IMG/VR virus record: IMGVR_UViG_3300021226_000189
Strand: one strand, 5' to 3'
Length of the DNA: 64,000 nucleotides
DNA from: a virus
Shown: piece after piece, positions 1,743 through 43,100 of the stretch
Layout: every line of letters begins with the position of its first letter
How positions within the stretch are numbered: the first letter of the stretch is position 1
The notes under the pieces: generated by a model
Told to the model about the DNA's origin: nothing
Databases searched by the model: none
The model's input: the letters and a program-made list of their open reading frames with translations, nothing else
Position numbers and translations under genes: made by a program

Positions 1743-1763
1743 AAACTAGCGTAAGATTGAGCC

Positions 1764-2056: not shown

Positions 2057-2077
2057 AAACTAGCCTAAGATATTGAC

Positions 2078-2233: not shown

Positions 2234-2263
2234 AGTAAACTGATACCGTAACCAATACACACC

Positions 2264-2506: not shown

Positions 2507-2517
2507 TCATGGCAAGT

Positions 2518-2547
2518 CCCCCTCTCACTGTGGTAAGTGAGAGGGGG
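2518..2547 (+). terminator. Stem-loop upstream of cassette promoter (second copy)
   Basis: CCCCCTCTCAC/GTGAGAGGGGG 11-bp stem; same AAGT and CAATCC flanks as 571-600. Confidence 0.6.
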
Positions 2548-2581
2548 CAATCCTATTAAAAAACTAGCTTAAACTTGGGAC

Positions 2582-2857: not shown

Positions 2858-2882
2858 AAAACTAGCTTAAACTGATTGCACC

Positions 2883-3023
2883 ATGAAGCCATACGCTAAC
2901 ATCCGACTCACTCAACGCGAGCGTCAAATTCTCGCAACTCGTATCCGCCTGAATCGTAAGCACAACAAGCAACGATTCACCCGTAAAGATGCGCACGACC
3001 TTGCTTTCATCCTTTTCGCGTAA
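2883..3023 (+). CDS. Early small basic protein (46 aa, MKPYANIRLTQRER...)
   Basis: Translated by hand; ATG 9 nt after TAAACT. Confidence 0.7.
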   Translation: MKPYANIRLTQRERQILATRIRLNRKHNKQRFTRKDAHDLAFILFA

Positions 3024-3048
3024 TTAAAAACTAGCCTAAGATACTGAC

Positions 3049-3315
3049 ATGCCTACTACACTTATCACTGGTAACACTTATCCCGTTAAAGACCAAATCA
3101 AAGCTTTGGGGGGGCGATGGAACTCAGTCCGCAAGGGTTGGGAAGTCCCCACTGCTAACGCTGAAGAAGCGCAAGCACTGGTGGAAAGCGCACCACGTTC
3201 AAGCGGTCGCAACGGTCGCGTGTCGTTTGAAGTCCGCACAAGCGGTGGCACGTTCTATCGCAACTATAACGGTCGCTGCGAAGATGCACCGTGCTGCGGA
3301 TGCTGCACGTTCTAA
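3049..3315 (+). CDS. Early protein with C-terminal GRCEDAPCCGCC Cys cluster (88 aa)
   Basis: ATG 6 nt after TAAGAT; N-terminal TYPVKDQIKALGGRW motif. Confidence 0.8.
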   Translation: MPTTLITGNTYPVKDQIKALGGRWNSVRKGWEVPTANAEEAQALVESAPRSSGRNGRVSFEVRTSGGTFYRNYNGRCEDAPCCGCCTF

Positions 3316-3337
3316 AAAACTAGCGTAAGATACTGAC

Positions 3338-3448
3338 ATGTCAATCACTGCCATGCTCAAGCAAGTCCGCGCTTCTCTGAAGCAAGTCAAGTCCGCTATC
3401 CGCAAGGAAAAGCAGATTCAAAAGAAACTCATTAAAAAACTAGCCTAA
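3338..3448 (+). CDS. Early small basic helical peptide (36 aa, MSITAMLKQVRASLK...)
   Basis: ATG 6 nt after TAAGAT; reads through next repeat and stops on the TAA of its TAAGAT. Confidence 0.65.
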   Translation: MSITAMLKQVRASLKQVKSAIRKEKQIQKKLIKKLA

Positions 3449-3460
3449 GATAGCTGCACC

Positions 3461-3661
3461 ATGAAAATCGAACTCGGTAAACGCTACGTGATGAGAAACG
3501 GAAACATCACTCCACCACTCCGTGCCACTAAGTTGAAGGGTACCTTGTACCCGTTCATCGCGGATCTCCCTGATGTCATCGGGATCAGTGAATGGAGTGT
3601 TGAAGGTTTTCGATACTCTGAAAAATATGAATCGGAATATGATCTTATCGCAGAAGCCTGA
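3461..3661 (+). CDS. Early small hypothetical protein (66 aa)
   Basis: ATG 9 nt after TAAGAT. Confidence 0.75.
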   Translation: MKIELGKRYVMRNGNITPPLRATKLKGTLYPFIADLPDVIGISEWSVEGFRYSEKYESEYDLIAEA

Positions 3662-3690
3662 TTAAAAAACTAGCCTAAGATAGCTGCACC

Positions 3691-3873
3691 ATGATTTACA
3701 AAAATCACACAATCCTGATGGCTTGGAGCCTTGACAAAGGCAACAAGGGTTACGATGTCCTCACTAAAGATGGGAGAATCTGGTTTCTCACTCTGTTAGA
3801 GGCTAAAGCTTGGATTGACTCCAAGCAACTAGCGATTGCAAACCACCATAGCCCAATGAACGGGCTATGGTAA
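3691..3873 (+). CDS. Early small hypothetical protein (60 aa)
   Basis: ATG 9 nt after TAAGAT; stop in next repeat. Confidence 0.75.
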   Translation: MIYKNHTILMAWSLDKGNKGYDVLTKDGRIWFLTLLEAKAWIDSKQLAIANHHSPMNGLW

Positions 3874-3898
3874 AAAACTAGAATAAGATAGTGTCGTC

Positions 3899-4123
3899 AT
3901 GAAAATCATTCCACTTCCCACTAAGTTCCACGCTGGCATCGACAAGGGTAAACTTGTCGCTCATGAGTTTGTCTCATTCCTTGTGAATGAGTGCGGTGCT
4001 GTCAATACTACTGGCAAGCCGCTTTACAATACAGCGGTGAAAGACTTGCTGATTGAAGGACGTGCAATCACTCGCTGCGAGATTGACACGTTCAAGTATA
4101 AAGCACACTTCACCTTGGCTTAA
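3899..4123 (+). CDS. Early small hypothetical protein (74 aa)
   Basis: ATG 9 nt after TAAGAT; stop in next repeat. Confidence 0.75.
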   Translation: MKIIPLPTKFHAGIDKGKLVAHEFVSFLVNECGAVNTTGKPLYNTAVKDLLIEGRAITRCEIDTFKYKAHFTLA

Positions 4124-4147
4124 AAACTAGCCTAAGATAACTGCACC

Positions 4148-4432
4148 ATGAATAACATGAACACCACCACCATCACTGCCGCTCACGTCGAAGCTTTCCT
4201 TGCTTTCATGTCCCCTTCAGCGGGACAAGTGATTGAACTCCCGAATGATCGGGTGCTTCTCCACTTCACTGAAGACGGAACAAACCGTGTCGCATGGATA
4301 CCGCAAGGCGCGAGCATTCACCCGATGAACGTGCAAACGATGAAGCTCACGCATTTGAGTGCTGGGGAGCTTGCGATTGTCCTTGACAAATTCAAGAACC
4401 CAAGGACTGCGAAAGTCCTCGGGCATGTCTAA
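4148..4432 (+). CDS. Early small hypothetical protein (94 aa)
   Basis: ATG 9 nt after TAAGAT. Confidence 0.75.
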   Translation: MNNMNTTTITAAHVEAFLAFMSPSAGQVIELPNDRVLLHFTEDGTNRVAWIPQGASIHPMNVQTMKLTHLSAGELAIVLDKFKNPRTAKVLGHV

Positions 4433-4505
4433 CATCTAGCATCTAACGCCCTCGTGTCCTAACGGATGTGAGGGCAATTAAAAACTAAAGTAAGATAGTC
4501 CTGTC

Positions 4506-4763
4506 ATGATTACTGTCGATCAATACAATGCCATCAAGAAGGAACGTGCGCAAGCCGTTAAACTCAATGCTTCCTATCGCATGAGCGGACAAAAGCACAT
4601 GCAAGTCCCTCTCCCTGAGCTTCCCCCTAAGCCTAAAAAATGGGTATTAGAAGATCAAGAAGGTAACTATGAAGGCACCTTCTGGGACAAAGCAGAAGCA
4701 GAAGATTGCGCTGAATATAACGGTTTCAAAATCTTTGAAATGGATTTTGACAAGTTCATCTAA
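4506..4763 (+). CDS. Early small hypothetical protein (85 aa)
   Basis: ATG 9 nt after TAAGAT; last cassette. Confidence 0.75.
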   Translation: MITVDQYNAIKKERAQAVKLNASYRMSGQKHMQVPLPELPPKPKKWVLEDQEGNYEGTFWDKAEAEDCAEYNGFKIFEMDFDKFI

Positions 4764-4784
4764 CATCTAACATCTAACATCTAA
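4757..4784 (+). repeat. (CATCTAA)x4 tandem heptamer
   Basis: Read directly; related run at 4428-4446. Confidence 0.9.
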
Positions 4785-4821
4785 CGCCCTCGTGTCCTAA
4801 CGGATGCGGGGGCGTTTTTTT
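4785..4821 (+). terminator. Intrinsic terminator closing the early array
   Basis: 13-bp stem (with G-U pairs), TAAC loop, T7 tail. Confidence 0.85.
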
Positions 4822-4832
4822 ATGTACTCGCA

Positions 4833-4905
4833 TTCTAGTTTTTAAGAGGGTGTTTTTAAAAACTAGGGGGGGTTGTTAGGATTTGCTTCTAGTTTTTAAG
4901 AGGGT
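4833..4905 (-). repeat. 19-bp direct repeat TTCTAGTTTTTAAGAGGGT x2 (array motif in reverse orientation)
   Basis: 4833-4851 and 4887-4905; forward TAAAAACTAG between them at 4857-4866. Confidence 0.9.
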
Positions 4906-4970
4906 CGGGGGACGGGGGGTTGCCATGGCAAAATAATTTTTTATATAATTCTTGGAAATTCGACTATTGA

Positions 4971-5057
4971 AAAAAATTTTTTTATTATTTTTTCGGGATT
5001 TTTTCCATATTCGCGCCCTCCTCAAAAAATTTTTTTTATTATTTTTTCGGGATTTTT
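4971..5057. repeat. ~34-bp imperfect A/T-tract direct repeat x2
   Basis: AAAAAATTTTTTT(T)ATTATTTTTTCGGGATTTTT at 4971-5004 and 5024-5057. Confidence 0.85.
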
Positions 5058-5497: not shown

Positions 5498-6355
5498 TCA
5501 CATAATGGAGATTGTTCCCATGTGTTTACCGATCATGATATTGAACATTTCATCTAAAGCATATTTGAATTGATTGAGATATTCCCAAGCTTCGTCTTCA
5601 TCTTCCAACCGATAATTACGTGCTGTGGATTTACCCCATGCTTGTCTGTTGGTGTCTTGGAGAAATTCTGGAGGATCATTGAATTCCAATTCTCCATCAT
5701 GTAGTAACCAATAAGCGAATGCTTCATGATAGAATTCTGCGGGTCTTACGAGTTTCCCCATTCTTGCACTACGGAATTTACCGATCTTTTGGAAGAAGTC
5801 TCTTATATAATAATCAGATGAATAACGTAAATCTCTGGAATTACTTGTGTTGATATTATAAGCTTGTTCGAAAAGATTTTTGAGGATGTTTGATATGTTT
5901 CTATTGATATAATTCAAATCGTTATATCTTTGTCTGAATGTCGCAGCGAAAGCATGTCCTATTCTATGAGCGATTGTCCATGGAGTCAGAGGGACTTTCT
6001 CGGCTGCGGCATTGTTGGTGAAGAAGATGGTGATTTGATCTCTTTCTGGTTGGGGGTAATCTCTACCAGCTTCCAGACCAAGATTTTCTTTTAGATATTC
6101 GGGTGTGACTAAACCTTTTTCTGCTTCTTTCCATGCGTTTGGTTTCTTTACGAAATACAAATTGAAATCCCAATTACCAATTCTATTGAAAGTGTTTTCG
6201 AGCTTTTTCAAACCAGCAGGAGATGACAAGATACCAATGGATGCTTTGTCATATCCGTGTCTGTTCTTTTTATCTTCCCACTTACCAATCTTTTGTAGAT
6301 TGGTCAGAGCCATTTCTTGGTAGATTTGTTGTAGGGAGATTTCGTCTTTGTTCAT
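5498..6355 (-). CDS. Late hypothetical protein (285 aa), possible internal head protein
   Basis: TAAATA-N5-ATG; N-terminus ...LQQIYQEM. Confidence 0.8.
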   Translation of the reverse strand: MNKDEISLQQIYQEMALTNLQKIGKWEDKKNRHGYDKASIGILSSPAGLKKLENTFNRIGNWDFNLYFVKKPNAWKEAEKGLVTPEYLKENLGLEAGRDYPQPERDQITIFFTNNAAAEKVPLTPWTIAHRIGHAFAATFRQRYNDLNYINRNISNILKNLFEQAYNINTSNSRDLRYSSDYYIRDFFQKIGKFRSARMGKLVRPAEFYHEAFAYWLLHDGELEFNDPPEFLQDTNRQAWGKSTARNYRLEDEDEAWEYLNQFKYALDEMFNIMIGKHMGTISIM

Positions 6356-6389
6356 TCTATTATTTAATCAATAAAGTCTCTATTTCATT

Positions 6390-10266: not shown

Positions 10267-10341
10267 GCGTCTATGATGTAATCGTTAGCATCCGATCCTT
10301 CCAAGTTCGGTGTGTGGGTTAGAGTCCCACTGGACGCTCCA
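10267..10341 (+). tRNA. tRNA-Gly(TCC)
   Basis: GCGTCTA/TGGACGC acceptor, CTTCCAA loop, CCA. Confidence 0.9.
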
Positions 10342-10350
10342 TTTCATCAG

Positions 10351-10458
10351 ATGAAATTTAAAAAATTACGAAAGAAATTTAAAACGGATTACTCAACTTG
10401 CAAATGGTTGAAATGGTTTAAATGGAAAAAAACTTGTAGAGATAAAGATTATGATTAG
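10351..10458 (+). CDS. Lys/Trp-rich peptide (35 aa)
   Basis: Translated by hand: MKFKKLRKKFKTDYSTCKWLKWFKWKKTCRDKDYD; end overlaps the next start. Confidence 0.45.
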   Translation: MKFKKLRKKFKTDYSTCKWLKWFKWKKTCRDKDYD

Positions 10459-10768
10459 AATTAAAATAATAGCGGACGCTTCATCATTCGGTGCTAGAAT
10501 CGCACTATTCAAAGATGATGATAAAGTAACATCTTTAAATTATGAACTTTTAGATGATCTTACGTTCCTATCTTCAAAGGATACACTATTCAAAGGACCA
10601 GAATTATCATTGAAAGATGCAGTGTTTGAATTGGCTATAATGTTGAAGAACGATAGTCCAGAAAAATTGAATGATGTTTCAATTGATGAAATTGTGGAAG
10701 CGTTTGAAGCTTTAATTGAAAAATATAAAATCAAAAGATGGGATGGGGGATACCTACCCTTTCAATAA
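10451..10768 (+). CDS. Hypothetical protein (105 aa)
   Basis: ORF track. Confidence 0.7.
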   Translation: MIRIKIIADASSFGARIALFKDDDKVTSLNYELLDDLTFLSSKDTLFKGPELSLKDAVFELAIMLKNDSPEKLNDVSIDEIVEAFEALIEKYKIKRWDGGYLPFQ

Positions 10769-10773
10769 TACAT

Positions 10774-11010
10774 ATGAATAAAGTAGAAATCAAAATGGAG
10801 AAAATTGAGATCAAATCTCACCCCCGTAAATTAAAAGGGGATTGGAAAATTGAAATTGATCCTGAACCAATCTGTTTGTATTATCATCCACCGATATGGG
10901 AAAGAGTATGGGATAAGATTCTGAATTTATTTGGTAAAAGAAAAAATCATATTTATGATGAAATCACAAAAGAATTTGAAAATAAAAAAAAATTGAAGAA
11001 AAAGACTTGA
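10774..11010 (+). CDS. Hypothetical protein (78 aa)
   Basis: In-frame ATG after the upstream stop. Confidence 0.6.
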   Translation: MNKVEIKMEKIEIKSHPRKLKGDWKIEIDPEPICLYYHPPIWERVWDKILNLFGKRKNHIYDEITKEFENKKKLKKKT

Positions 11011-11045
11011 AAAAGTTACGAGGAATGCTAAATACTAATAACAAC

Positions 11046-11108
11046 ATGAAATACGAACAATATAATCAAAACAAGCCAGCGACACCGAATGGGTGGCGGC
11101 GTGAATGA
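11046..11108 (+). CDS. Putative leader peptide MKYEQYNQNKPATPNGWRRE
   Basis: Lies between TTGAAA-N16-TAAATA promoter and terminator hairpin. Confidence 0.55.
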   Translation: MKYEQYNQNKPATPNGWRRE

Positions 11109-11140
11109 TTGTGTTTTAGTAAGACATATTGGATTTCGCG

Positions 11141-11166
11141 CCTCATCTGAAAAGATGGGGTTTTTT
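11141..11166 (+). terminator. Intrinsic terminator upstream of tRNA cluster (attenuator-like)
   Basis: CCTCATCT-GAAA-AGATGGGG-TTTTTT. Confidence 0.8.
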
Positions 11167-11245
11167 ATTTTAGAGGTGAACGAAGCGACCTGAACTGCTA
11201 GAGAGTGGTGAAAGACTAATAGAGAATGTTGAAATATATTTTTAT

Positions 11246-11320
11246 GGGATCATAATTCAATGGTAGAATAACTCCCTTTTAAGGAGTAAGCTGAAGGTTC
11301 GAGTCCTTCTGATCCCACCA
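11246..11320 (+). tRNA. tRNA-Lys(TTT)
   Basis: Cloverleaf, CTTTTAA loop, CCA. Confidence 0.95.
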
Positions 11321-11322
11321 AT

Positions 11323-11398
11323 TCCCAAGTAGCTCAGTTGGTAGAGCAAGCGGCTGTTAACCGCTGGGTCGTAGGTTCGAACCCTACCTTGGGAGCCA
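11323..11398 (+). tRNA. tRNA-Asn(GTT)
   Basis: Cloverleaf, CTGTTAA loop, CCA. Confidence 0.95.
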
Positions 11399-11403
11399 TT
11401 AAT

Positions 11404-11479
11404 GCTTCTATCGTCTAAAGGTCAGGACAAAGGATTTTCAATCCTTAGATCGCGGGTTCAAGTCCCCGTAGAAGTACCA
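11404..11479 (+). tRNA. tRNA-Glu(TTC)
   Basis: Cloverleaf, TTTTCAA loop, CCA. Confidence 0.9.
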
Positions 11480-11482
11480 TAT

Positions 11483-11556
11483 GCCTCCATAGTTCAATGG
11501 TAGAACTCCCGATTTGTAATCGGGTGATGCAGATTCGAATTCTGCTGGAGGCTCCA
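11483..11556 (+). tRNA. tRNA-Thr(TGT)
   Basis: Cloverleaf, TTTGTAA loop, CCA. Confidence 0.95.
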
Positions 11557-11565
11557 TTTTTTAAT

Positions 11566-11652
11566 GCGTTAGCGGCGAAGTAGGAGAGTCGCGGCGGTCT
11601 GTAAAACCGCAGCCTTCGGGCTTAGTAGATTCGAATTCTACCTAACGCACCA
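11566..11652 (+). tRNA. tRNA-Tyr(GTA)
   Basis: Cloverleaf with long variable arm, CTGTAAA loop, CCA. Confidence 0.95.
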
Positions 11653-11662
11653 TTTTTAACAT

Positions 11663-11740
11663 CTAGTCGTGGTGGAGAGGTCTAACACACCTGCTTTGGA
11701 AGCAGGAACAACGTTCGTTCGAATCGAACCGACTAGACCA
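11663..11740 (+). tRNA. tRNA-Pro(TGG)
   Basis: CTAGTCG/CGACTAG acceptor, TTTGGAA loop, ACCA. Confidence 0.9.
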
Positions 11741-11750
11741 TTTTTTCAAC

Positions 11751-11827
11751 GGGTCATTAGTTCAGTTGGTAGAACGTCTGCCTTGCAAGCAGAATGTCGT
11801 GGGTTCGAGTCCCACATGTATCCACCA
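11751..11827 (+). tRNA. tRNA-Ala(TGC)
   Basis: CTTGCAA loop, G3-U70, one bulged base in acceptor stem, CCA. Confidence 0.9.
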
Positions 11828-11836
11828 TTTTTTAAT

Positions 11837-11912
11837 TGGGCGTTGGTGTAATCGGCTAGCACCGCAGATTTTGATTCTGTTAGTAGGGGTTCGAGTCCTC
11901 TACGCCCTACCA
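11837..11912 (+). tRNA. tRNA-Gln(TTG)
   Basis: TTTTGAT loop, 1-72 mismatch, CCA. Confidence 0.9.
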
Positions 11913-12079: not shown

Positions 12080-12194
12080 AATATTACCACCATTGCGCTA
12101 ATTTCATACACATCCTCACCTATGATAACTCTTTTGTTTTTCACAATCTCAATATAACCCATTTCCTTCCTCTGTCAATAGATTAAATAATACC

Positions 12195-12668
12195 ATGCGA
12201 ACATTTCTAGAATCATTCTACGATATCCAAGAGCTATCCCCAAATACTACACTCCAAGATATCATGAATACTCACTATCTTAAAGTTTATCGCTCATCGG
12301 CTCGACCTGAAAAAAATGATTATCAATCAGGTTCTCACGCAGGAACTTGGCAACAAGCCATGATTCGTGCTGATTACATGATCAACGATGAAGGTAAATT
12401 TGACAAGTATTATCTTTACGAATTGATTATCCGAATTGAGAATGTGTATCCCGAATTATTACCTGATGATGGAACAGATCATGGATATGATTACTCTAAG
12501 AAATTGGGGAATTATGATATCGCGTTCTATAAGAATACAGGAGAAGGTGATATCAGAAATGAAAATCTTTCCGTTATTATCAACAATCCTGATAGCGTGG
12601 TTGAATCTAAGATGGTTAGGGAGATTGATGGAGAGTATTTAACTTCCATTCAGAAAGAATTGTATTAA
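12195..12668 (+). CDS. Putative ADP-ribosyltransferase-like protein (ART-PolyVal-like)
   Basis: KVYRS...GSHAGT..QA...YDIAFYKNTGEG...SVIINNP pattern; TAAATA-N5-ATG. Confidence 0.45.
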   Translation: MRTFLESFYDIQELSPNTTLQDIMNTHYLKVYRSSARPEKNDYQSGSHAGTWQQAMIRADYMINDEGKFDKYYLYELIIRIENVYPELLPDDGTDHGYDYSKKLGNYDIAFYKNTGEGDIRNENLSVIINNPDSVVESKMVREIDGEYLTSIQKELY

Positions 12669-12676
12669 ATAAAATA

Positions 12677-14197
12677 ATGAAAAATTTCCATAAATTGTAT
12701 CACAAACTCATGCGTGAGTATGTGGAAGATTTTGACCAGAAATGGGATAAAGCTGTTTCCGAATCCGAAGAACTTCAAGTTGCTTTGGATTTGATGAAGA
12801 ATATCAAAGCGAAATTGAAAGGTGAAATCTATATCGTCGGTGGTGTTCCTCGTGACTTGCTCATGGGTAACGCAATTGATGATGTGGATTTGGCTACCAA
12901 TATTCCCGTGGAACAATTGAAGAAACATTTTGAATTGAGAAATATTTCCAAGAACGATTCCCAACCAGTATATGCTATCCTCTGGAAAGGATATGTTTAT
13001 GATTTGGCAAAATTCAGAACTGATTCTGGCGACATTGGTAGACAAGCCAATGTCTCAACCGAGACTGATTCATTCCAAGCGGATACGGAACGTAGAGACC
13101 TAACAATCAATTCTTTCGGATTGGATGAGAATGGTAAGATCGTAGATTATCAAGGTGGTCTGGAGGATTTGAAAAACAAAATCGTCCGTGCTGTAGGAGA
13201 TGCCAAGAAGAGATTCATGGAAGATGCTACAAGGATTCTTCGTGTTTTCCGATTCGCCGCCAAGATGGATTTCGAAATCGAGGAAAATACTAAGAAAGCG
13301 GCTATCGAATTAAAGCATTTGCTTCAAGATCCAAAAGCGATTTCCAAAGAAAGTATTTCAAAAGAATTTTATAAGTCTGCCAAGACTGGTAGAACGCTTG
13401 CAAATTTCTTGAAGAAATTACAAGATACAAAAATCCTACATGATATTCTTCCTGAATTCACGCAGATGGAAGGTTTTGATCATGATCCACAACATCACCC
13501 TGAAGGAGAATCTCAAGTATTAGGACACATCTATGAGTGTCTGAACGCTTCTCCTTACAAAGACCCTGTGATTAATTTAGCTGTATTGTTCCATGACTTT
13601 GGAAAAGCTACGACTAGAGGTAAAAAAGACAATGGATTCAGTAGTTATCATGGTCATGAAGCTGCTGGTGTTCCTATTGTTGAAGGGATTTTCGAGAGAC
13701 TAAGATTCAATGAACTGTCTCAGCAAGACAAAAAAAATATCTTAGCAGCGGTGGATAAGCACATGCTCATCCACAATCTCGATAAATTAAATATTAAAAC
13801 ACTCACAAAATTGATTCAAAACCCTGCATGGGAAACAATCAAAGCAGTTGGTTATTGTGATGAAGCATCAAGAGGTTCTGGTCTCTTTAATGAACAAGAA
13901 TTTTGGGATAAAGTTAAAAGAGCCGAAGAAAAAGTGTCTAAGATTGGAGGCTCAGAGGATGAAACTAGAAAACGTCTGAAACAATATTTCAGCGGAAATA
14001 AATTGATGGAATGGTTCCCGATTCTTATTAAGGATAAATCAAAGTTCAGGGATATCACATCCGCATTACAAGAATATACTCTAGAAGAATTGAATGCTGG
14101 TAGAGAACCAAAAGAAGACGAAATGAAAACGATTGCCGCAGGTATTCTGAAAAACAATCAGTTTAATGAGTGGTTTGATTATTTCAAAAGAAATTAA
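12677..14197 (+). CDS. cca: CCA-adding tRNA nucleotidyltransferase with HD domain
   Basis: VGGVPRDLL, DDVDLAT, RRDLTINS, EDATRILRVFRF, HHPEG, LFHDFGK. Confidence 0.95.
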   Translation: MKNFHKLYHKLMREYVEDFDQKWDKAVSESEELQVALDLMKNIKAKLKGEIYIVGGVPRDLLMGNAIDDVDLATNIPVEQLKKHFELRNISKNDSQPVYAILWKGYVYDLAKFRTDSGDIGRQANVSTETDSFQADTERRDLTINSFGLDENGKIVDYQGGLEDLKNKIVRAVGDAKKRFMEDATRILRVFRFAAKMDFEIEENTKKAAIELKHLLQDPKAISKESISKEFYKSAKTGRTLANFLKKLQDTKILHDILPEFTQMEGFDHDPQHHPEGESQVLGHIYECLNASPYKDPVINLAVLFHDFGKATTRGKKDNGFSSYHGHEAAGVPIVEGIFERLRFNELSQQDKKNILAAVDKHMLIHNLDKLNIKTLTKLIQNPAWETIKAVGYCDEASRGSGLFNEQEFWDKVKRAEEKVSKIGGSEDETRKRLKQYFSGNKLMEWFPILIKDKSKFRDITSALQEYTLEELNAGREPKEDEMKTIAAGILKNNQFNEWFDYFKRN

Positions 14198-15132
14198 TCT
14201 TTATGCCACTTTTCCATTTTGGAATAATATTATTTAAGTTCGTGTAACAATGGATCTTTAGATGTGATGCGATGTTTTTTCCCTTCATCGTCCAAATAAA
14301 TTACAGGATCTACCACAAAGATATTCCCATTCTCATCCATTAAGACATTTTCATCGTGCATATCTTCTACACGAATTCCTTTTTCTCGATTGATGTAATC
14401 GTGATCTGTTCCTTGAATTTTCGAATAACCTAATTTATTCATCAGTCGCTCAACATCTACGGGAGATGCTCCTTTGGTGGCTCTAACATGAGGTTGTGAA
14501 ATAACTGGTTGTAATTCCCCGTCATTGATTACAAACCCCTCTAAAGCATATGGAGCTTCAGGAAAAGATGCGTTGTGTAGCGCAAGTCTATAGAAGAATT
14601 CTAAATATGTGGTGTGATATGACAAATTGTTCCTCTTAAACCATCTTTGGGACTCCTCATCGAAATAAACGTTGTTTTCCGCTTCTCCCTTTTTACCTTG
14701 TTCATACCATTTACGGTCGAATTCGTCATTGTCCATAATCAGACCAACTTGTTCAGCCCAACGGGTCAACCATTTCTCTTCTACTGGTTTAACCCGCTTT
14801 GCCATTAGATTCCTACCAATGACTTTTTTCTTGTATTCTTTTTCCGTTGTGAACTCTGGGATCGAATCATCTCGTATTGATTCATGGCTTCTGTAAGCGA
14901 CAGTGGTGGCAGCTTTGAGTTTTTTTCCACCTCTTCCAGTATAGCCTTGTTCCGCTCCAGATGGGATTCTGTCAGGAGTGTATCGTGTTTGTTTTTCATA
15001 AATTATTTTGATAAAATTTTCAAAATTGATTAAATTTTTCTGTGGGATGGTTCTCATCATATTTATTTATCCATTCTTCCGCATCTATACGATGTTAATC
15101 TTTATGCCACTTTTCCATTTTGGAATAATATT
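14194..15132. repeat. 38-bp perfect direct repeat flanking the kinase gene
   Basis: TTAATCTTTATGCCACTTTTCCATTTTGGAATAATATT at 14194-14231 and 15095-15132. Confidence 0.95.
14230..15060 (-). CDS. Ser/Thr kinase-like protein (Kinase-PolyVal-like)
   Basis: GEAENNVY, WFKRN, LHNASFPE, PVISQP, DMHDENVL, VVDPVI. Confidence 0.75.
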   Translation of the reverse strand: MMRTIPQKNLINFENFIKIIYEKQTRYTPDRIPSGAEQGYTGRGGKKLKAATTVAYRSHESIRDDSIPEFTTEKEYKKKVIGRNLMAKRVKPVEEKWLTRWAEQVGLIMDNDEFDRKWYEQGKKGEAENNVYFDEESQRWFKRNNLSYHTTYLEFFYRLALHNASFPEAPYALEGFVINDGELQPVISQPHVRATKGASPVDVERLMNKLGYSKIQGTDHDYINREKGIRVEDMHDENVLMDENGNIFVVDPVIYLDDEGKKHRITSKDPLLHELK

Positions 15133-15319
15133 GTGGATCTTCTTCAACATGTTGTTTAGCAATCGTTTTCGATAATTTCTTACCTAAAGTAGTCCTTCTT
15201 TTAGAAGGATTGACATGTTCTTGTTCTACTTTCTCACCTTTGGAAACTTCTGTTTTTGGAAGATTTTTCTTCTTAACTTTCTTGAAGTATTCATCAAAGA
15301 AATCTTGGAACTTTTTCAT
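15095..15319 (-). CDS. DUF5661-like small protein
   Basis: GEKVEQEH...IAKQHVEEDPQYYSKM. Confidence 0.6.
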   Translation of the reverse strand: MKKFQDFFDEYFKKVKKKNLPKTEVSKGEKVEQEHVNPSKRRTTLGKKLSKTIAKQHVEEDPQYYSKMEKWHKD

Positions 15320-15990
15320 TTTAAATTATCGACGATTTTTTGAATTTCTTTCAATAAGATATGTTGACTTCTCTTACCATTTATGGTTTTGGGTTCTTCG
15401 ACTTCTTCGAAGGCGAATTCACGCCCTTTAACTTTTGTTAAGAATGGTCCAGAATGTTGTCCGAATATACCTTTACCAACTACTTGTTTGACACCTAAAC
15501 CAGGGTAAGCACCTTCGCTACCTGAAGTACCCCATAAATAAGCACCTTCTCCACCTGCTGGTATGATTAACACTGAGTCTTGATTAAACGCTTTACCCAA
15601 TTTATATAAATCTTTAGCTAATTGACCACCATCATCACCCACAATTTTATCATTAACAACGAAGAAAGAACGTTCATTAACGTCTTTCGGGGTTTTATTA
15701 TAATATTCACCGCCAGCTCTTCTAGCTAAAATTTCTTCTTTTTTATCATCATCTTCAAAATTTTCAATAAATGTTCCCAACACGGAAGTTATCGAATAAC
15801 CTTTTGATTGTAGATATGCAAGTATTTTCTTATTATTCAATAGATTTTGTTTGTAAGGGATATCACCTCTAAAAGCCGTGATAATACCACCTGAGTGATT
15901 TTTTATTTTATTCAAAACCCTACTCAGACTACTTTCATTCAATAAATCTGAATAAATTTCCCCGATCTGATTTATATCTGTACTTTTCAT
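15316..15990 (-). CDS. Conserved large-phage hypothetical protein
   Basis: ESSLSRV...ITAFR...LGKAFNQDSVL; ATG at 15990. Confidence 0.8.
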   Translation of the reverse strand: MKSTDINQIGEIYSDLLNESSLSRVLNKIKNHSGGIITAFRGDIPYKQNLLNNKKILAYLQSKGYSITSVLGTFIENFEDDDKKEEILARRAGGEYYNKTPKDVNERSFFVVNDKIVGDDGGQLAKDLYKLGKAFNQDSVLIIPAGGEGAYLWGTSGSEGAYPGLGVKQVVGKGIFGQHSGPFLTKVKGREFAFEEVEEPKTINGKRSQHILLKEIQKIVDNLK

Positions 15991-16277
15991 TGCCAATTTT
16001 CCTCCATTTTTTTCAAATTATTTATCAACATTTCTAGGTTTCTAGAATGGAAATTACAATCGATTTTTGTAATCGCGACATGCTGATTTTTATCAGCATC
16101 AAAGCATAACGAATAATTAAATTTAGAAACGCCTTCCATATGTTCAACCATCAATATAAATGTTTCAAACATACCAGAAGGTGCCACATCAAATTTATCA
16201 TCTGTTTTTACAAACTCCACACCATCAAGCTTTGATGGGCAATTTTTTTCATATTTTTTTGGATAAATTACTATCAT
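15987..16277 (-). CDS. Hypothetical protein (96 aa)
   Basis: ORF, overlapping neighbours by 4 nt. Confidence 0.7.
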   Translation of the reverse strand: MIVIYPKKYEKNCPSKLDGVEFVKTDDKFDVAPSGMFETFILMVEHMEGVSKFNYSLCFDADKNQHVAITKIDCNFHSRNLEMLINNLKKMEENWQ

Positions 16278-16864
16278 CTTGCCAATTTCATGTAAACAAC
16301 CACTGTCTCGGCATTCCTGTCAATATTACCATTTTCATCAACATAATAAGAAATACCGTTAAACACTGGATAAGGCATTGTATCATCATTTTTATCAGTG
16401 TCAATAACAAAACCATTTCTACTATAAAGTTTAAATAATCCAACATTTTTAATACCACCTTCACCATCTTGTTTTGCAAAACAGTCTAAACGTCTAACAC
16501 CGTTCTTGATAGCACTTTGGACGATGGCATCGCCTGATGATTTCATATAAGAAAAAACAGAAACCAATTCGTCACCATCTTTGATACAATATCCACTGGT
16601 GTTGTTTGGACCAATGAAACATTTCATTTTAGCATATTCCTCTGGTTTATAAAGAGTGATGTTATCTCTAATACCTTTTGGAGCAGAGTTACTATCATCT
16701 GATCTCATATAACCATTGATAATTTTGTAAAAATTTCTCCAATCAACAGGTTTGAATTTTTCAGAGTCATCAGAGTTCAATTTGTAACCCTTTTTCAGTA
16801 TTTCAGGGGATATTTTTCCAATATCCGAAAATGCTTCCCAAAAGAATTGATAAAATGTTTTCAT
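16274..16864 (-). CDS. Putative GNAT-fold protein
   Basis: LVSVFS..SGDAIVQSAIKNGVRRLDCF...LFKLYSRNGF; start set by TAAATA-N5-ATG. Confidence 0.5.
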   Translation of the reverse strand: MKTFYQFFWEAFSDIGKISPEILKKGYKLNSDDSEKFKPVDWRNFYKIINGYMRSDDSNSAPKGIRDNITLYKPEEYAKMKCFIGPNNTSGYCIKDGDELVSVFSYMKSSGDAIVQSAIKNGVRRLDCFAKQDGEGGIKNVGLFKLYSRNGFVIDTDKNDDTMPYPVFNGISYYVDENGNIDRNAETVVVYMKLAR

Positions 16865-16872
16865 TATATTAT

Positions 16873-17118
16873 TTAACAATATTTATCATTAGGATGATCG
16901 ATATCGAATTTTTTCAACAATTCTCTAGCATATTCAGCATCTATACGATGATGTATTACTTCTTGTTCCAATAGTCCAATATAAATAAAACGTTTATACG
17001 ACATTTTACTCGAATAATGTCTCTCATAAATGTTCCTACGACATCGTTCTTGAAATTTAGCTCTCTCTAATGCTTCCAACCAATCTTTTGATAATTCAGG
17101 TAAATTATAATCTTTCAT
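16873..17118 (-). CDS. Hypothetical protein
   Basis: In-frame ATG downstream of mazG stop. Confidence 0.6.
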   Translation of the reverse strand: MKDYNLPELSKDWLEALERAKFQERCRRNIYERHYSSKMSYKRFIYIGLLEQEVIHHRIDAEYARELLKKFDIDHPNDKYC

Positions 17119-21542: not shown

Positions 21543-21854
21543 TTATTTGTTTAATTTTTCTTTTAATTTGCTGAAAGCTAATCTTACAGCATTATTAATC
21601 TGATCGGAATCTCCCATACATTCATCTTCAACTTCTTGAACAATTTTCAAAATTCCTGTTGGTTCTTCTTCCTGTTCTCCGTAAACATTAGACGTAACCA
21701 TTGGCGGTGCAACACCTATGGTTTGTTTATTGTAAGATAACTTCGTCCCTGCTTCTTGGGGGACTTCTTGTTTAGCGACTCTTTGTGGAGGATTGAACCC
21801 ACTTTGGTATTCTAGAATCAAATCAGCGTAAATGTTTTGTAAATTTTTATCCAC
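21543..21854 (-). CDS. Late hypothetical protein
   Basis: GTG start set by TAAATA-N5. Confidence 0.65.
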   Translation of the reverse strand: MDKNLQNIYADLILEYQSGFNPPQRVAKQEVPQEAGTKLSYNKQTIGVAPPMVTSNVYGEQEEEPTGILKIVQEVEDECMGDSDQINNAVRLAFSKLKEKLNK

Positions 21855-21902
21855 GATATTATTTAATTTGATAAGAAGATTTTCCATGTTAAATAATAAT
21901 AT

Positions 21903-22550
21903 ATGAAAAAATGGCGTTATCGGAGTGAAGATGAAAAAATGGATGATGATGCTTTACTAAAAAGTTTGGTCATTAAATCTTTGGATAATAGTGATACAGA
22001 TGGTGATACTGTTATTCAAGGTATTAGAATAATTAATAATAAAGTTTTATTTTATGCTGATGTTGATGAGGGTAGTATTTTAGAATTGAATAGAGTCCTT
22101 CTTCAATTAGATGCAAAATTACAGACTATTAAATGTCTGGATGAAAATTACGATCCGATAATTCATTTGCATGTTAATACATACGGTGGTAGCATCTTCG
22201 CTGCTTTTGCAGCAATTGACACGATTCGTCGTTTGAAATCTAAAATTTACACCTACGTCGATGGTAGCGTAGCGTCTGCTGGAACATTACTAATCGCAGT
22301 TGGACATAGAAGATTTATCGGTCAATATTCCCACCTATTAATCCATCAATTAAGTTCTGGTGTGTATGGTAAATTTGCAGAAATTGAAGATGAATTTTTC
22401 AATTGTAGTAATTTGATGAAAATCTCAAAAGATTTTTATAAAAAATACACCAAAATGCCCATGAAAAAATTGGAAGAAATATTAAAAAGGGATATTTGGT
22501 TAAATGCTCAAGAATGTCTTGAGTATGGAATCGTTGATGAGATTCTCTAA
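21903..22550 (+). CDS. clpP: ClpP-like protease
   Basis: INTYGGS-like VNTYGGS, VASAGT, LIHQ, RDIWLNAQECLEYGIVDEI. Confidence 0.9.
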   Translation: MKKWRYRSEDEKMDDDALLKSLVIKSLDNSDTDGDTVIQGIRIINNKVLFYADVDEGSILELNRVLLQLDAKLQTIKCLDENYDPIIHLHVNTYGGSIFAAFAAIDTIRRLKSKIYTYVDGSVASAGTLLIAVGHRRFIGQYSHLLIHQLSSGVYGKFAEIEDEFFNCSNLMKISKDFYKKYTKMPMKKLEEILKRDIWLNAQECLEYGIVDEIL

Positions 22551-29736: not shown

Positions 29737-31218
29737 TTATAAATATGTCGAAATTGAACCAGGAGTAAACGCAGTACCAAGACCTTTGACAATGATCAGG
29801 TGATAATAAAGATTAGCACCGAAGATATTGTTTACGATACCATAACGGGTCATGAGTCCAACGCGAGGAGCGAAATCATTCGGTCCAATTGTGCGTTGCA
29901 CCATAATCGGGATGTATGGGCAGTAAATAATACCTGTGTCATAGTATTCAGAACCTTTGTAGCCCAAGAGAGCGTATTCAACACCGTTTGGATTGTTAGA
30001 AGAGTAACCTCTATTTCCATACAATGAAGAGTTCTGAACTTCAGTCCGAGTATCACGATAAACCGTCCAGCGGCTACCAACAGTACCAACTTTAGCAATA
30101 CCTACACCAGCCGTGGAAACAGTTCCATTGATTTCAAAAACTTTGAAGTCAGGAAGCATTTCAAGGATGCTGCAAACACGAGGAGTTGCGATAACAAAGT
30201 TAGCAGCACCTCTACGGTTACGAGCAGCCATACGACCACTTTCGATAAGCAAGCGTTGATAGAAGGTAATATTTCTTTCAGCAGTCCAACGACCATCCGC
30301 ACTAACAGGACTCCAGATGGAGAAACCTGCTCCAGGCCCAGCATTGAAGGCGGTTTGGATCATACGCATTACAACTTCACGGTCGATTTCAGCTTGGATC
30401 TCATACGACATAGCATTCGTAAGTTCACCATCGATATCAATACCGTTCATGTTTTTAATGTCTTGTTCCAACTCGACCGACCAACGTGTAGCCAATCTAC
30501 GTGTACCAGCTTCAACAGCGGTCTTGTCAAACTTGAGTTCGATTTGAGGGATTTTACCCGTCAACTCGTAATTATTCAAGAGTTCAGCAATACCACGGTC
30601 TTGATCTGCAAATGTCCACTCGGCATGACCAGAGAGGAAAGCAGCAGATGTGCCAGTAAAACGTGTGTCCAGAAGTTGAAAACCAAGTTCGTCGGAGTTA
30701 TCAGAGCCAATTGCTCCGAGGCCATCAGTACCAGTGTAAGCAGCTTTAAGCTGATTACCAAAGCTGGAACCTGCGCCACCGCCAGTAGGTTTACCGTCGA
30801 TACTACCATCGCTCAGAGTATCACCTTGGTAGGCATAACGAAGAGCGAAAGCAAGACCAACAGGTCCGCCCATAGGCTGAACACCAACAATTTCGTTGGA
30901 AATCAATTCAGGGAAAGTGCGTCTAATCATAGGAATAAGAATCTTTGGCAGACGTGCGTCACCGCTAGCATAGGAGTCGCTGTTAGCGATACCGTTGCCA
31001 AGGGAAGCAGCCGCGCCAAACACACCACCGCTAGATGCTGTGTTAGATTCTTGAAAGCACCACTGTTCTTGGTTCTCAAGCAACATAGCAGTCGTTTTGT
31101 AAACGTGTTCGTTCTGGATAGCAGGAATCGAGTTCGAGCTATAGTCCAGCACTTTACGCCATTTAGCAACAGCTTTTTGCATTTTTGAGCCTTGGATGTC
31201 AGTTTGTGGGATATTCAT
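29737..31218 (-). CDS. gp23: T4-like major capsid protein
   Basis: VGVQPMGGPVGLAFALR, KTAVEAGTRRLATRWSVELEQD, EIQAEIDRE, YCPYIP, PRVGLMTRYG. Confidence 0.97.
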   Translation of the reverse strand: MNIPQTDIQGSKMQKAVAKWRKVLDYSSNSIPAIQNEHVYKTTAMLLENQEQWCFQESNTASSGGVFGAAASLGNGIANSDSYASGDARLPKILIPMIRRTFPELISNEIVGVQPMGGPVGLAFALRYAYQGDTLSDGSIDGKPTGGGAGSSFGNQLKAAYTGTDGLGAIGSDNSDELGFQLLDTRFTGTSAAFLSGHAEWTFADQDRGIAELLNNYELTGKIPQIELKFDKTAVEAGTRRLATRWSVELEQDIKNMNGIDIDGELTNAMSYEIQAEIDREVVMRMIQTAFNAGPGAGFSIWSPVSADGRWTAERNITFYQRLLIESGRMAARNRRGAANFVIATPRVCSILEMLPDFKVFEINGTVSTAGVGIAKVGTVGSRWTVYRDTRTEVQNSSLYGNRGYSSNNPNGVEYALLGYKGSEYYDTGIIYCPYIPIMVQRTIGPNDFAPRVGLMTRYGIVNNIFGANLYYHLIIVKGLGTAFTPGSISTYL

Positions 31219-31280: not shown

Positions 31281-32165
31281 TTATCGTTTGAACTCCATCG
31301 ATTGAAGGACGCTCAAATAAGGATTATTTTCCTCTACATCATTATTTACCTTTTCCGTGATAACTTTTTGATTTTTCACGAAATCTGGTTTATGTTTACG
31401 ACTTTGTAGAGCCTCTTCTTTGATTACTTCAAGTTGTTTCTTCTCTTGTTTTTCGAAAAGACGAACGGTGTAATCAAAATTTTCTTTGATGAACGACAAC
31501 GATTTGTCGCCAAGAGCTTTTTTCAAGAAGTTCTTTTTAGCTTCTGGATATTTAGAAGTTTTACCTTCAAGGAAAAGTTTAACTTCAGCTTGTTCTTTTC
31601 CTTCGGTGAGGAATTTAAGATTCTTTTTCAACTCAACGTTTTCGCTACGAAGCTTGTCAATCTCTTGTTTACCTTCCATAATAGGACCAGCAACAGATTC
31701 TTTCATAACAGCAAGGTCGATACCCAATACTCTACGAAGATTTTCGAGAACATTAATAGCAGTTTTATTTTTAACTGCTTGTTCGATATCTTTAGCAGGA
31801 ACTGATTCATTCAGGAATTCATCCAGATAAGCACTAACAGATTCGGTCAATTGTTTTTTGAATTTGACGAGATCACCTTGTTGTTCTCTTTCATATTTCT
31901 TAACAACTTTAACCAATTTAGCAGTCTTGTCTCTATCAAAAGCTTCCATCAATTTTTTCATTTTAATAGTGCGGTCTTTATCAACCGACTCCATCAAAGA
32001 TTTTAATTTATTAGCGTAGACTTCATCTTGTTGTTCGAGAGCAGCTTCAACAGCAAGATCAATTTTAGCTTCTAAAGCTTCTTGAATAGCTACAACTGAC
32101 TCGTCGGTAAGACCAAGACTTTTTTGAACATCTTCAGAGAAAAGTTTCTGTTTGTTTTTCTTCAT
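31281..32165 (-). CDS. gp22: Prohead core/scaffold protein
   Basis: Coiled-coil protein directly upstream of gp23. Confidence 0.85.
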   Translation of the reverse strand: MKKNKQKLFSEDVQKSLGLTDESVVAIQEALEAKIDLAVEAALEQQDEVYANKLKSLMESVDKDRTIKMKKLMEAFDRDKTAKLVKVVKKYEREQQGDLVKFKKQLTESVSAYLDEFLNESVPAKDIEQAVKNKTAINVLENLRRVLGIDLAVMKESVAGPIMEGKQEIDKLRSENVELKKNLKFLTEGKEQAEVKLFLEGKTSKYPEAKKNFLKKALGDKSLSFIKENFDYTVRLFEKQEKKQLEVIKEEALQSRKHKPDFVKNQKVITEKVNNDVEENNPYLSVLQSMEFKR

Positions 32166-32744: not shown

Positions 32745-33410
32745 TTAGATACTATTGATAAATTTTATGATTTGTTGACGAAGATAAGATTCAACATCAT
32801 GTTTCGGAAGAGTTTTAATCGTCTTTTCAAAATTCTCATAAACTTCTTCGAATGAACCGTCTTGTTCTACGACATAAGTTTTACTTTCTAAAATACCATT
32901 GACAAAAGCTTTTGGATAAGATGGATCGGCAACAGCGTCGATAGCCACTAAATGCATATTTTGAACCAAATTATAATCACGGTTTTCCATCAATTGACCA
33001 AGCGCACGGGTGGACATACCAACCTTAACACCATCATTAATGAGCGCACGGAGGATCTGCCCAGTAGGAGTTGATAAAACTTTAGCTTTCCCTACGAAAT
33101 AATCATCGACTTCATGTAATTCTGTGACCAAGTGACACGCTCTTTCGAGATTCACATCAGCACTTGTGGGGTGATTCAATTCGCCCATCGCTCTACCTGG
33201 AAGCACCATCTCATTAATGTATCTTTGAACTTCTGATCTGGTATCATCAAGTCGATACATTCTTTTATTTTTATTAACAGTATTACATCCGATAAAAGGA
33301 CCTTTAACATAAAGGTTGGATGAACTGTTTCGATTAGATTGCTCTTCAATAACTTCAAAGTTATCAAACACGTCAGGATTCTCTGCGATTAATTTAAGTT
33401 TCAACGCCAT
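32745..33410 (-). CDS. gp21: Prohead protease
   Basis: NKNKRMY, GELNHP, GMSTRALG, DAVADPS..AFVNGILE. Confidence 0.95.
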   Translation of the reverse strand: MALKLKLIAENPDVFDNFEVIEEQSNRNSSSNLYVKGPFIGCNTVNKNKRMYRLDDTRSEVQRYINEMVLPGRAMGELNHPTSADVNLERACHLVTELHEVDDYFVGKAKVLSTPTGQILRALINDGVKVGMSTRALGQLMENRDYNLVQNMHLVAIDAVADPSYPKAFVNGILESKTYVVEQDGSFEEVYENFEKTIKTLPKHDVESYLRQQIIKFINSI

Positions 33411-42015: not shown

Positions 42016-42690
42016 ATGAATTTATGGGATTTTATCACACAAAATGCGCAAGCCCTTACTCTAGTTTTTAGCGTTTTAGGTAGCGTTCTATTGTCTATAA
42101 AACGTGTTAGAACGTGGTTGACCGACAAATATAAAAAACATCAGGAATACAACAAATCAAAACACTTGATACCCAGCACTTTACAAGAAATTAAAGAGTG
42201 TGTAATGAATTTAGATGATAGAGTGAAGCGAGTCGAATATGAGATTTCCCCAAATGGTGGTGGTTCCATGAAAGATTCGCTGAATATAGTAAAAGCTGAA
42301 ATTGAAGCTTTGTTTTGGTTGAACCCTAAACCATCCTTTAGAACAACGTCTAAAGGTTTGAATATTCAAGTTAATGAATCTTATTGTCATTTATGTGGAA
42401 CTTCCTCAGAAGAACTACTTAAACAAAATTGGAAAAATTTCATTGAAGATGGAGAACAATTGGACGATTTTATGAGAAGATGGGAATACTCATCAGATAC
42501 AATGTCGCAATATTCTGGAAAATTAAAATTCAAAAATTCTAGAGATGAAAGTTTGGGTGAGTGGGTAATAAAAGTTAGACCATTAGGACCGATAAAAGGT
42601 GGACAGGACTACCTGTGGCATGGATCTATTTTACCATCCGATCAAAAAGCAAGAGATTGTGCTAAAAGCTACAATATTCCCTTAAATTAA
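42016..42690 (+). CDS. Membrane-anchored PAS-domain protein
   Basis: N-terminal TM, PNGGGSMKD, then ..QVNESYCHLCG.S.EEL..QNW.NFI PAS pattern. Confidence 0.7.
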   Translation: MNLWDFITQNAQALTLVFSVLGSVLLSIKRVRTWLTDKYKKHQEYNKSKHLIPSTLQEIKECVMNLDDRVKRVEYEISPNGGGSMKDSLNIVKAEIEALFWLNPKPSFRTTSKGLNIQVNESYCHLCGTSSEELLKQNWKNFIEDGEQLDDFMRRWEYSSDTMSQYSGKLKFKNSRDESLGEWVIKVRPLGPIKGGQDYLWHGSILPSDQKARDCAKSYNIPLN

Positions 42691-43100
42691 GAATATTTTT
42701 TAACTAAATATTCAGCATATCTCTGGATTTCATCTTCATCCAAATAACAGTCAAACGGACCATCATCTTTTAATAATTTGATTAATTTTTTTCGAGTGAT
42801 TTCGTAAGGTTTGAGATAATCAATTCCAAAATCATAAGCTATTTGTTTATTACTTCGCAAACCTTTAGTGTCAAAATATCTACCTGATGGATGTTCAACT
42901 GCTACGTGTGTGTATTCGATTTTATCACCATCTAAGGGATACCCTTCTGGATTTGATAATATAAAAATTTTCCACCCTGTTAAATCGTGTAATTTAAGAG
43001 CTAGAGAAGCACAATTACCTTGTAAATAATCATCGTGGGTGTTATCATCATACACACTTTCATACAATAAAGCTAAATTTTTATAATCTAGATTTTTCAT
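42687..43100 (-). CDS. Hypothetical protein (MKNLDYKNLALLYES...)
   Basis: ATG immediately after portal stop; GNCASLA..LH motif. Confidence 0.7.
   Translation of the reverse strand: MKNLDYKNLALLYESVYDDNTHDDYLQGNCASLALKLHDLTGWKIFILSNPEGYPLDGDKIEYTHVAVEHPSGRYFDTKGLRSNKQIAYDFGIDYLKPYEITRKKLIKLLKDDGPFDCYLDEDEIQRYAEYLVKKYS

Follow-up and report, generated by a model that had tools for sequence, protein, structure and literature searches.

Leaders resembling the T4 capsid targeting sequence in an enzyme locus of a distant T4-like phage: candidate signals for packaging and injection

Why should enzymes of unrelated families, encoded side by side in a phage genome, begin with much the same few residues? 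The question is raised by the 64,000-nucleotide (64 kb) stretch of IMG/VR virus record IMGVR_UViG_3300021226_000189 analysed here in full and called the window, which belongs to a distant, uncultured T4-like phage with genes for a gp23 capsid protein, an S77 prohead protease and a portal. Between 12184 and 16875, beside a tRNA cluster, two converging gene runs, two plus-strand genes against five minus-strand genes reading from 16864, make up a block of enzyme and enzyme-like genes that all start with short leader peptides except one. An original prediction made from the letters alone held these starts to be T4-like capsid-targeting N-termini and the block to be a possible injected payload. Here we describe evidence that the block is, with a probability of about 0.58, the internal-protein locus of a far T4 relative, in which the leaders would dock the proteins, the S77 protease would trim them after glutamate, and the enzymes would be delivered with the DNA.

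Open reading frames (ORFs) were called in the window and in 17 related loci, and were clustered with their first residues disregarded. At least 16 non-homologous families proved to open with a leader of one of two amphipathic types. Class A, M-x-x-F-x-x-[FL]-[FY], occurs in the window as MRTFLESFYD, MKNFHKLYHK, MKKFQDFFDE and MKTFYQFFWE, and in relatives as MNNFKTFFER, MITFSKFFEL, MISFHEYFLI and MQSFLEFFEE. Class B, [LI]-x-x-[LI]-Y-x-[ED], occurs as SLQQIYQEMAL (6355), IGEIYSDLLNE (15990), LQNIYADLILE (21854) and LALLYESVY (43100), and also heads families of 214, 300 and 676 amino acids (aa) in relatives. The six N-termini listed at the outset all exist as claimed: MRTFLESFYD at 12195(+), MKNFHKLYHKLMRE at 12677(+), ..NFENFIKIIYEK in gene 14230-15060(-), MKKFQDFFDE at 15319(-), ..IGEIYSDLLNES from 15990(-) and MKTFYQFFWEA from 16864(-); so do the similar ones at 6355, 21854 (with a GTG start) and 43100. 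Scored with a matrix to which its own family had not contributed (seven families in each case), no class A leader was outscored by more than 5 of 198 other family N-termini. The same leave-one-out procedure gave seven of the eight class B leaders scores of 4.9-13.4, and the kinase -2.0. In the kinase the leader-like stretch, NLINFENFIKIIYE/K, sits inward of the extreme N-terminus (here and below a slash marks a leader end or candidate cut). Pfam and PHROG searches of ten more leader-bearing families returned nothing informative, and in an AlphaFold2 (AF2) model the GNAT-family leader forms a low-confidence helix outside the fold.

The T4 internal proteins IPI, IPII and IPIII carry a capsid targeting sequence (CTS), as reported by Mullaney and Black (1996) according to PMC9026906 and PMC3012670; in the T4 record IPII and IPIII start MKTYQEFIAE/A and IPI starts MKTFKEF...ITE/A. 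A position matrix was derived solely from this phage group's eight class A leaders and used to score 201 ORFs from 110 kb of T4. Its top four were gp61.1 (MKTFKEFIKE, 11.9), IPI (7.4), IPIII (6.9) and IPII (6.9), with the next ORF at 1.0, and the chance of all three internal proteins landing in the top 4 of 201 is ~3e-6. In T4 IPIII, targeting is governed by residues 4 and 7 and processing by residues 8 and 10 (PMC9026906). At these functionally important positions, 4, 7, 8 and 10, the predicted class A leaders agree with the T4 sequence: F4 is present in 8/8, an aromatic residue or Leu at 7 in 7/8, and F or Y at 8 in 8/8. Glu falls at positions 9-14 in 7/8; the leader of the ADP-ribosyltransferase (ART)-fold protein has Asp10, with Glu6 and Glu13. 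Closest to MKTYQEFIAE/A is MKKFQDFFDE/Y of the DUF5661 protein. T4 gene 61.1 (L020:18966-19130), which encodes a hypothetical protein of 54 aa that outscores the known internal proteins with the class A matrix, may be an overlooked CTS-bearing gene.

The leader ends are more uniform than the leaders themselves. The mature part of the GNAT-fold protein starts ..AFSDLGKLSPEQL across some 90 homologues, and the preceding peptide is highly variable in sequence and length: class A (MKSFIQFFYE) and class B (..SEIANLYSEMLVE) both occur, as do a literal T4-type MKTYQEFIDLNE (exact MKTYQEFI), 'xxILE' types and stretches of only 5-8 residues. Across this junction P1 is Glu in 86/87, P3 is F, I, L or V in 85/87, and P1' is mostly Ala or Lys; E10 of the GNAT-fold protein is invariant in 48/48 sequences. 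The 31 ART-fold homologues keep E6 in at least 90%, and their leaders belong to class A or to class B (NLANLYSEMY, LSQIYTEMY, IGLLYEKIL), the Glu being conserved; full-length homologues of the S-adenosylmethionine (SAM)-lyase-like protein read [LIV]-x-E/S[SG]L in 22/22, behind varied leaders. Cleavage after Glu is common to T4 gp21, which cuts Alt at ITE-6 and LTE-619, and to all related head proteases (PMC5694885); the putative leader ends of the form [LIFV]-x-Glu follow this rule. Class A and class B leaders exchange before the same mature domain in P0029 (GNAT-fold) and in P0135, P0144 and P0146 (ART-fold), and because of this swapping, the only tie of class B to class A, we treat the two classes as equivalent.

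A leader peptide is also found inside longer proteins. In relatives the CCA-adding enzyme is fused behind a ~330-aa domain and in one case also lies before a NUDIX domain (968 aa), and its leader peptide is repeated at the internal domain joints of fusions of 472, 815 and 968 aa (..YEMLMRE/YVEDF). One such joint, ..SFDQEYEMLMRE/YVEDFDQKW, matches the N-terminus of the stand-alone window protein, MKNFHKLYHKLMRE/YVEDFDQKW. An internal copy rules out a translation-start artefact as the explanation, whereas a linker cut by a protease would explain it. An in-frame deletion from leader to joint seems to have produced the stand-alone CCA gene of the window. In relative L013 the N-domain and joint are as in the other fusions, and an unrelated C-terminal part follows.

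The window also encodes the T4-type head genes on which such processing would depend (Table 1). As we propose it, a leader would dock its protein on the scaffolding core of the assembling prohead in the manner of the T4 CTS, and the gp21-type S77 protease would cut after the Glu of the hydrophobic-x-Glu motif at the leader end and, in the fused relatives, at the same motif between domains; the mature enzymes would remain in the head and enter the next host along with the DNA. The S77 protease is presumed to be the processing enzyme and the scaffold candidate the docking partner. The window gp23 shares 31-32% identity with cyanophage gp23 and 27% with T4 gp23, and CFQE followed by S or A, the nearest conserved candidate, is suggestive of its maturation site.

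What the leader-bearing proteins do was approached through their domains. Profile hidden Markov models (HMMs) bore out the calls of a CCA/PolyA_pol enzyme with an HD domain, a Kinase-PolyVal kinase and a DUF5661 protein, and these as well as an S-AdoMet_lyase match pass Pfam cut-offs; the 'ART-like' and 'GNAT-like' assignments found no HMM match and are backed at the fold level only, by AF2 models of the 157-aa and 196-aa proteins based on alignments of natural homologues. The 157-aa model has a predicted local distance difference test (pLDDT) score of 89.8, and its top fold matches all belong to the ART superfamily (ParT, the diphtheria-toxin C domain, MbcT, PARP), with Z of 6-7.9 over 111-131 aligned residues and RES types also among the neighbours. 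H48, Y72/Y75 and E117 are invariant in this family and would fit an H-Y-E arrangement. The 196-aa model (pLDDT 85.8, below 50 for residues 1-19) matches GNAT acetyltransferases with Z ~10 over ~125 residues, in the part from 27 to 196. In the CCA-adding enzyme the catalytic domain runs from residue 51 on. Judged by its families, namely ART and GNAT folds, a PolyVal kinase, CCA-adding/HD tRNA-end repair, a SAM-lyase-like protein and one small basic protein, the cargo would likely serve host take-over and counter-defence at entry.

When the genes are switched on bears on the same question. The original prediction gave three of the six listed genes an exact late promoter. T4's TATAAATA is unused here: the window has just 10 copies, none of them before virion genes, and TAAATAAT takes its place: it has 36 copies where 11.8 +/- 3.5 would be expected, and 19 lie 3-8 nucleotides (nt) before a start codon. 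It precedes the scaffold-position gene, the protease, portal, baseplate and fibre-like genes, and also the 157-aa, 196-aa, 6355 and 21854 genes. Within the block an exact copy stands 3 nt before the ATG at 12195 and at 16864 and at none of the other four listed genes; the CCA and kinase genes have one-mismatch versions, and the DUF5661 and 15990 genes have no copy, both lying downstream of 16864 on the same strand. The third exact copy, 14229-14236, is within a duplicated gene tail and before no listed gene. Over seven loci, 25/46 leader genes and 36/233 others have TAAATA[AT]N no more than 16 nt from the start (Fisher 8.5e-8), a count that includes non-independent homologues. Since the TAAATA core is common to TAAATAAT and the T4 late promoter, and since a homologue of gp55, the late sigma factor of T4, is encoded in relatives, late expression of the leader genes is plausible; the motif also precedes non-virion genes, so that 'late' is a timing we infer. 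That late expression would otherwise be hard to explain is a weak argument, as defences set off by late proteins would also favour late cytoplasmic repair enzymes. The motif ends just 3-5 nt before the ATG (for example 32169-32176, 33414-33421, 44951-44958 and 12184-12191), and no Shine-Dalgarno sequence is visible; if TAAATA is aligned with the T4 late -10 element, transcripts would begin at or next to the start codon, and late mRNAs would thus be leaderless or nearly so.

Several observations weigh against an internal-protein locus. The class B matrix found nothing specific among the T4 ORFs, its top matches being the HNH proteins MobA and MobB. The kinase, at -2.0 the weakest leader, was rejected as a class B member. 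Hydrophobic-x-Glu is a short and common motif, and the conserved Glu could be part of the mature domains. A gp23 cleavage site sought through alignment with T4 Glu65 was given up, there being no Glu at the aligned position. The fold matches of the ART-fold protein are middling, with Z below 8, and the motif enrichment leans in part on related genes. Finally, TAAATAAT also stands before HNH, endolysin-like and ClpP-like genes, nrdB and phoH. The likeness to the T4 sequence that the original prediction saw holds for class A, where the T4 internal proteins rank at the top, and not for class B, which has no packaged T4 counterpart; the kinase leader did not pass the leave-one-out comparison. The original prediction as a whole is partly supported. 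Its core, T4-type leaders cut after Glu on a changeable set of enzymes, came through the sequence tests made of it: in its favour are the likeness of the class A leaders, the Glu junctions, the S77 protease, the hypervariable locus next to the tRNA genes and the four families shared with polyvalent proteins. On the other side are a promoter that is not that of T4, the kinase leader and the behaviour of class B in T4.

This division suggests a narrower explanation, in which only the class A proteins (ART-fold, CCA, DUF5661 and GNAT-fold) bear a capsid-targeting signal, class B and the kinase have an unrelated helix, and the block is packaged in part. We regard it as improbable, yet the most serious competitor: packaged T4 proteins are missing from the class B matrix results, the kinase fails the leave-one-out comparison, and there are several class B genes beyond the hypervariable block, but the two leader types interchange before the same mature domain in two families (GNAT-fold and ART-fold), class B leaders share the [LIV]-x-E junction, and the virion-gene motif stands before many class B genes. 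Alt's MELITELFDE was considered as a class B leader and dropped because the class B matrix does not retrieve Alt; among the T4 ORFs the Alt leader is in fact retrieved by neither matrix.

The variability of the locus bears on a second alternative. The region beside the tRNA cluster differs among the window and the 17 related loci: the CCA position may carry a protein of 472, 815 or 968 aa, the kinase is missing in some relatives or replaced by a 254-aa protein (in L010 and L013 there is no kinase between the CCA and DUF5661 genes), and proteins of 300 and 676 aa are variably present. In the window the kinase cassette is bracketed by a perfect 38-nt direct repeat, which corresponds to the 3' end of the DUF5661 gene; the left copy of the repeat belongs to a mini-ORF remnant (MEKWHKD and a stop) after an exact TAAATAAT. 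Protein P0174 is a natural chimera, in which a start of the GNAT-fold family (the leader and some 30 residues) runs into a SAM-lyase-like C-terminal part, and is, on its sequence, more evidence of exchange between cassettes. Shared starts might then be handles for cassette exchange, or answer the needs of near-leaderless translation, or both; promoter and first codons would then form a mobile regulatory unit, and the proteins would work, unpackaged, in the cytoplasm of the cell that makes them. The starts of three cassettes are indeed similar in DNA (24-39 nt, 77-83%), the motif lies merely 3-5 nt before the ATG, and cassettes have clearly been exchanged, as the kinase between its 38-nt repeats and the existence of chimeras attest. 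Past codon 4, however, the likeness is one of residue type and not of bases; virion genes with the same motif do not begin M-K-x-F; the leader also occurs internally, at domain joints; leaders that differ in sequence and length retain the [LIF]-x-E junction; and the specific resemblance to the T4 CTS would be unexpected. We consider this account doubtful, and less probable than packaging of the class A proteins only.

That the leaders are tags for another machine, either a modifying enzyme such as a radical-SAM protein or a ClpP-like protease for which they would be degrons, is very unlikely, since the ClpP-family gene at 21903-22550 that shares the promoter-like motif and adjoins a class B gene is tied to the leaders solely by proximity, three related genomes (two of them complete) hold no radical-SAM gene, in a search where all control genomes gave matches, and the junction rule fits gp21-type proteases. 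The ClpP-family protease (plus strand, E 8e-30) has an extra N-terminal stretch of ~78 aa and a virion-type motif and is a second protease besides S77; its gene points away from 21543-21854, the conserved gene with a class B leader.

Table 1. Features of the window, followed by fusion genes in related loci.
Feature	Position	Strand	Remarks
285-aa protein	5498..6355	-	Class B leader ..SLQQIYQE/MAL; TAAATAAT at 6359-6366; no Pfam or PHROG match
Nine tRNA genes	10267-11912		Adjoin the enzyme block
TAAATAAT motif	12184..12191	+	3 nt before ATG of ART-fold gene
ART-fold protein, 157 aa	12195..12668	+	Class A leader MRTFLE/SFYDIQE/L
CCA-adding enzyme (PolyA_pol head + HD), 506 aa	12677..14197	+	Leader MKNFHKLYHKLMRE/Y; Pfam and PHROG matches
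Perfect 38-nt direct repeat pair	left 14194-14231, right 15095-15132		Brackets the kinase cassette
Kinase-PolyVal protein kinase	14230..15060	-	PF18762, E 4e-36, residues 93-257
Basic DUF5661 protein, 74 aa	15095..15319	-	Leader MKKFQDFFDE/Y; passes Pfam cut-off
S-AdoMet-lyase-family protein	15316..15990	-	Class B leader MKSTDINQIGEIYSDLLNE/S; PF23780, 38.6 bits
96-aa protein	15987..16277	-	No leader; always coupled to GNAT-fold gene
GNAT-fold protein, 196 aa	16274..16864	-	Leader MKTFYQFFWE/A
TAAATAAT motif	16868..16875	-	3 nt before GNAT-fold gene; heads minus-strand run 16864 to 14230
~103-aa protein	21543..21854	-	GTG start; in all relatives; leader (M)DKNLQNIYADLILE/YQSGF; motif 21858-21865
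gp23 major capsid protein homologue	29737..31218	-	Candidate maturation site CFQE/S
Candidate scaffold (gp22 position)	31281..32165	-	Between protease and gp23; hydrophobic-x-E-rich; no family match
Prohead protease, T4 gp21 type	32745..33410	-	Peptidase_S77 PF03420, E 3e-28; phrog_207, E 5e-53
137-aa protein	42687..43100	-	Directly after portal gene; leader MKNLDYKNLALLYE/S; no family match
Fusion, N-domain/CCA/HD/NUDIX	L007:9008-11914		
Fusion	L017:12856-15303		
Fusion	L013:3820-5238		

Besides the genes already named, the window encodes a tail-sheath-stabiliser-like protein and a helicase, and its gp23 and portal have PHROG matches. Positions 1-5000 have a GC content of 0.41-0.45, against ~0.33-0.36 elsewhere, and many very small ORFs. 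The 96-aa gene and the GNAT-fold gene occur together, in 12 loci, and overlap stop to start; the former, as the sole leaderless gene of the block, may, speculatively, encode an inhibitor or chaperone that does not leave the producing cell. The block had zero megablast matches among 50,697 phage records, and no close relative is deposited there. In tblastn searches of the phage collection the ART-fold protein had zero matches, the DUF5661 protein a single insignificant one, and the GNAT-fold protein just weak matches to 'acetyltransferase' genes of Streptomyces phages. IMG/VR holds many related contigs, two of them complete (198 and 207 kb), and the complete relative G003 served for whole-genome questions about the window phage.

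If the block is an internal-protein locus, it resembles that of T4 in several ways and departs from it in others. As in the T4 internal proteins, a conserved leader of 10-19 residues, with an aromatic residue at position 4, hydrophobic residues at 7-8 and a Glu end predicted here to match a gp21-type cut, stands before unrelated mature parts, of which the DUF5661 protein is small and basic. Unlike them, the proposed window cargo consists mostly of large enzymes, from 157 aa to as much as 968 aa in fusions; leaders of a second class, without T4 counterpart, occur beside the first; the motif recurs at internal joints; and gp23 is only ~27-32% identical to those of T4 and cyanophages. The T-even internal-protein locus is polymorphic and its genes share only the CTS, according to Repoila et al. 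(1994) as cited in PMC3012670. The window locus is likewise polymorphic, with leader-sharing genes beside a tRNA cluster, as T4 ipI also adjoins one in the T4 record; it differs in gene content and in that whole enzyme cassettes, fusions and a 38-nt repeat are involved in the exchange.

Comparisons with other delivered proteins point in the same two directions. T4 Alt is a packaged and injected ADP-ribosyltransferase with an N-terminus trimmed at ITE-6, and the window has an ART-fold enzyme whose delivery is predicted; unlike Alt, this is a protein of 157 aa without sequence match to Alt, and it has its fold neighbours among ParT, diphtheria-toxin, RES and PARP types. Iyer, Burroughs, Anand, de Souza and Aravind (2017) described polyvalent proteins, whose protein-modifying families are ART, kinase, GNAT and pol-beta nucleotidyltransferase and which are predicted to be co-delivered with DNA (PMC5512222). 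The same four-family repertoire and a cassette-like variability are found here, together with the 968-aa N-domain/CCA/HD/NUDIX chain in relatives. Unlike polyvalent proteins, the window domains are in separate genes, mostly with leaders of their own, polypeptides of several domains being confined to relatives; the loading signal and protease joints that we propose are specific to T4, and neither a MuF nor a portal-linked anchor turned up. In the phiKZ-like and SPN3US giant phages many head-internal ejection proteins resemble the window proteins in having N-terminal propeptides shared among paralogues and in processing after Glu, predicted here, by a gp21-related protease, but their protease belongs to family S80, their sites are S/A/G-x-E, with a small and not a hydrophobic P3, and their cargo is different (PMC5694885). 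That the CTS may have a general role in loading proteins into T4-like phages has been suggested in one review (PMC3012670, PMC9026906). Our literature search found no description of natural CTS-type leaders on such enzymes, of a second interchangeable leader class, or of leader-like protease joints in fusions.

A wider reading is tentative and, in our estimate, clearly less secure than the internal-protein locus on which it builds: far T4-like phages may have a general grammar of address leader and protease-cut joints by which any enzyme cassette, single or in a polyprotein, can be loaded into the head. The kit present at infection would then comprise three protein-modifying enzymes (ART, kinase and acetyltransferase), one that degrades SAM, and a module for tRNA 3'-end repair, whose CCA-adding and HD domains (with NUDIX in relatives) would reverse defence-inflicted damage to tRNA ends before phage gene expression. 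The two interchangeable leader classes might set copy number or position in the core.

Should the block prove to be an internal-protein locus, several consequences would follow. The presence of host-modifying and repair enzymes under virion-type promoters would be accounted for, and the polyvalent-protein repertoire would be tied to a concrete packaging mechanism. A sequence rule, a leader followed by hydrophobic-x-Glu, would predict injected phage proteins, and the natural leaders and joints would be usable for loading foreign proteins into T4-type capsids. The T4 CTS itself would be an old and widespread system for loading real enzymes, reaching well beyond three small T-even proteins.

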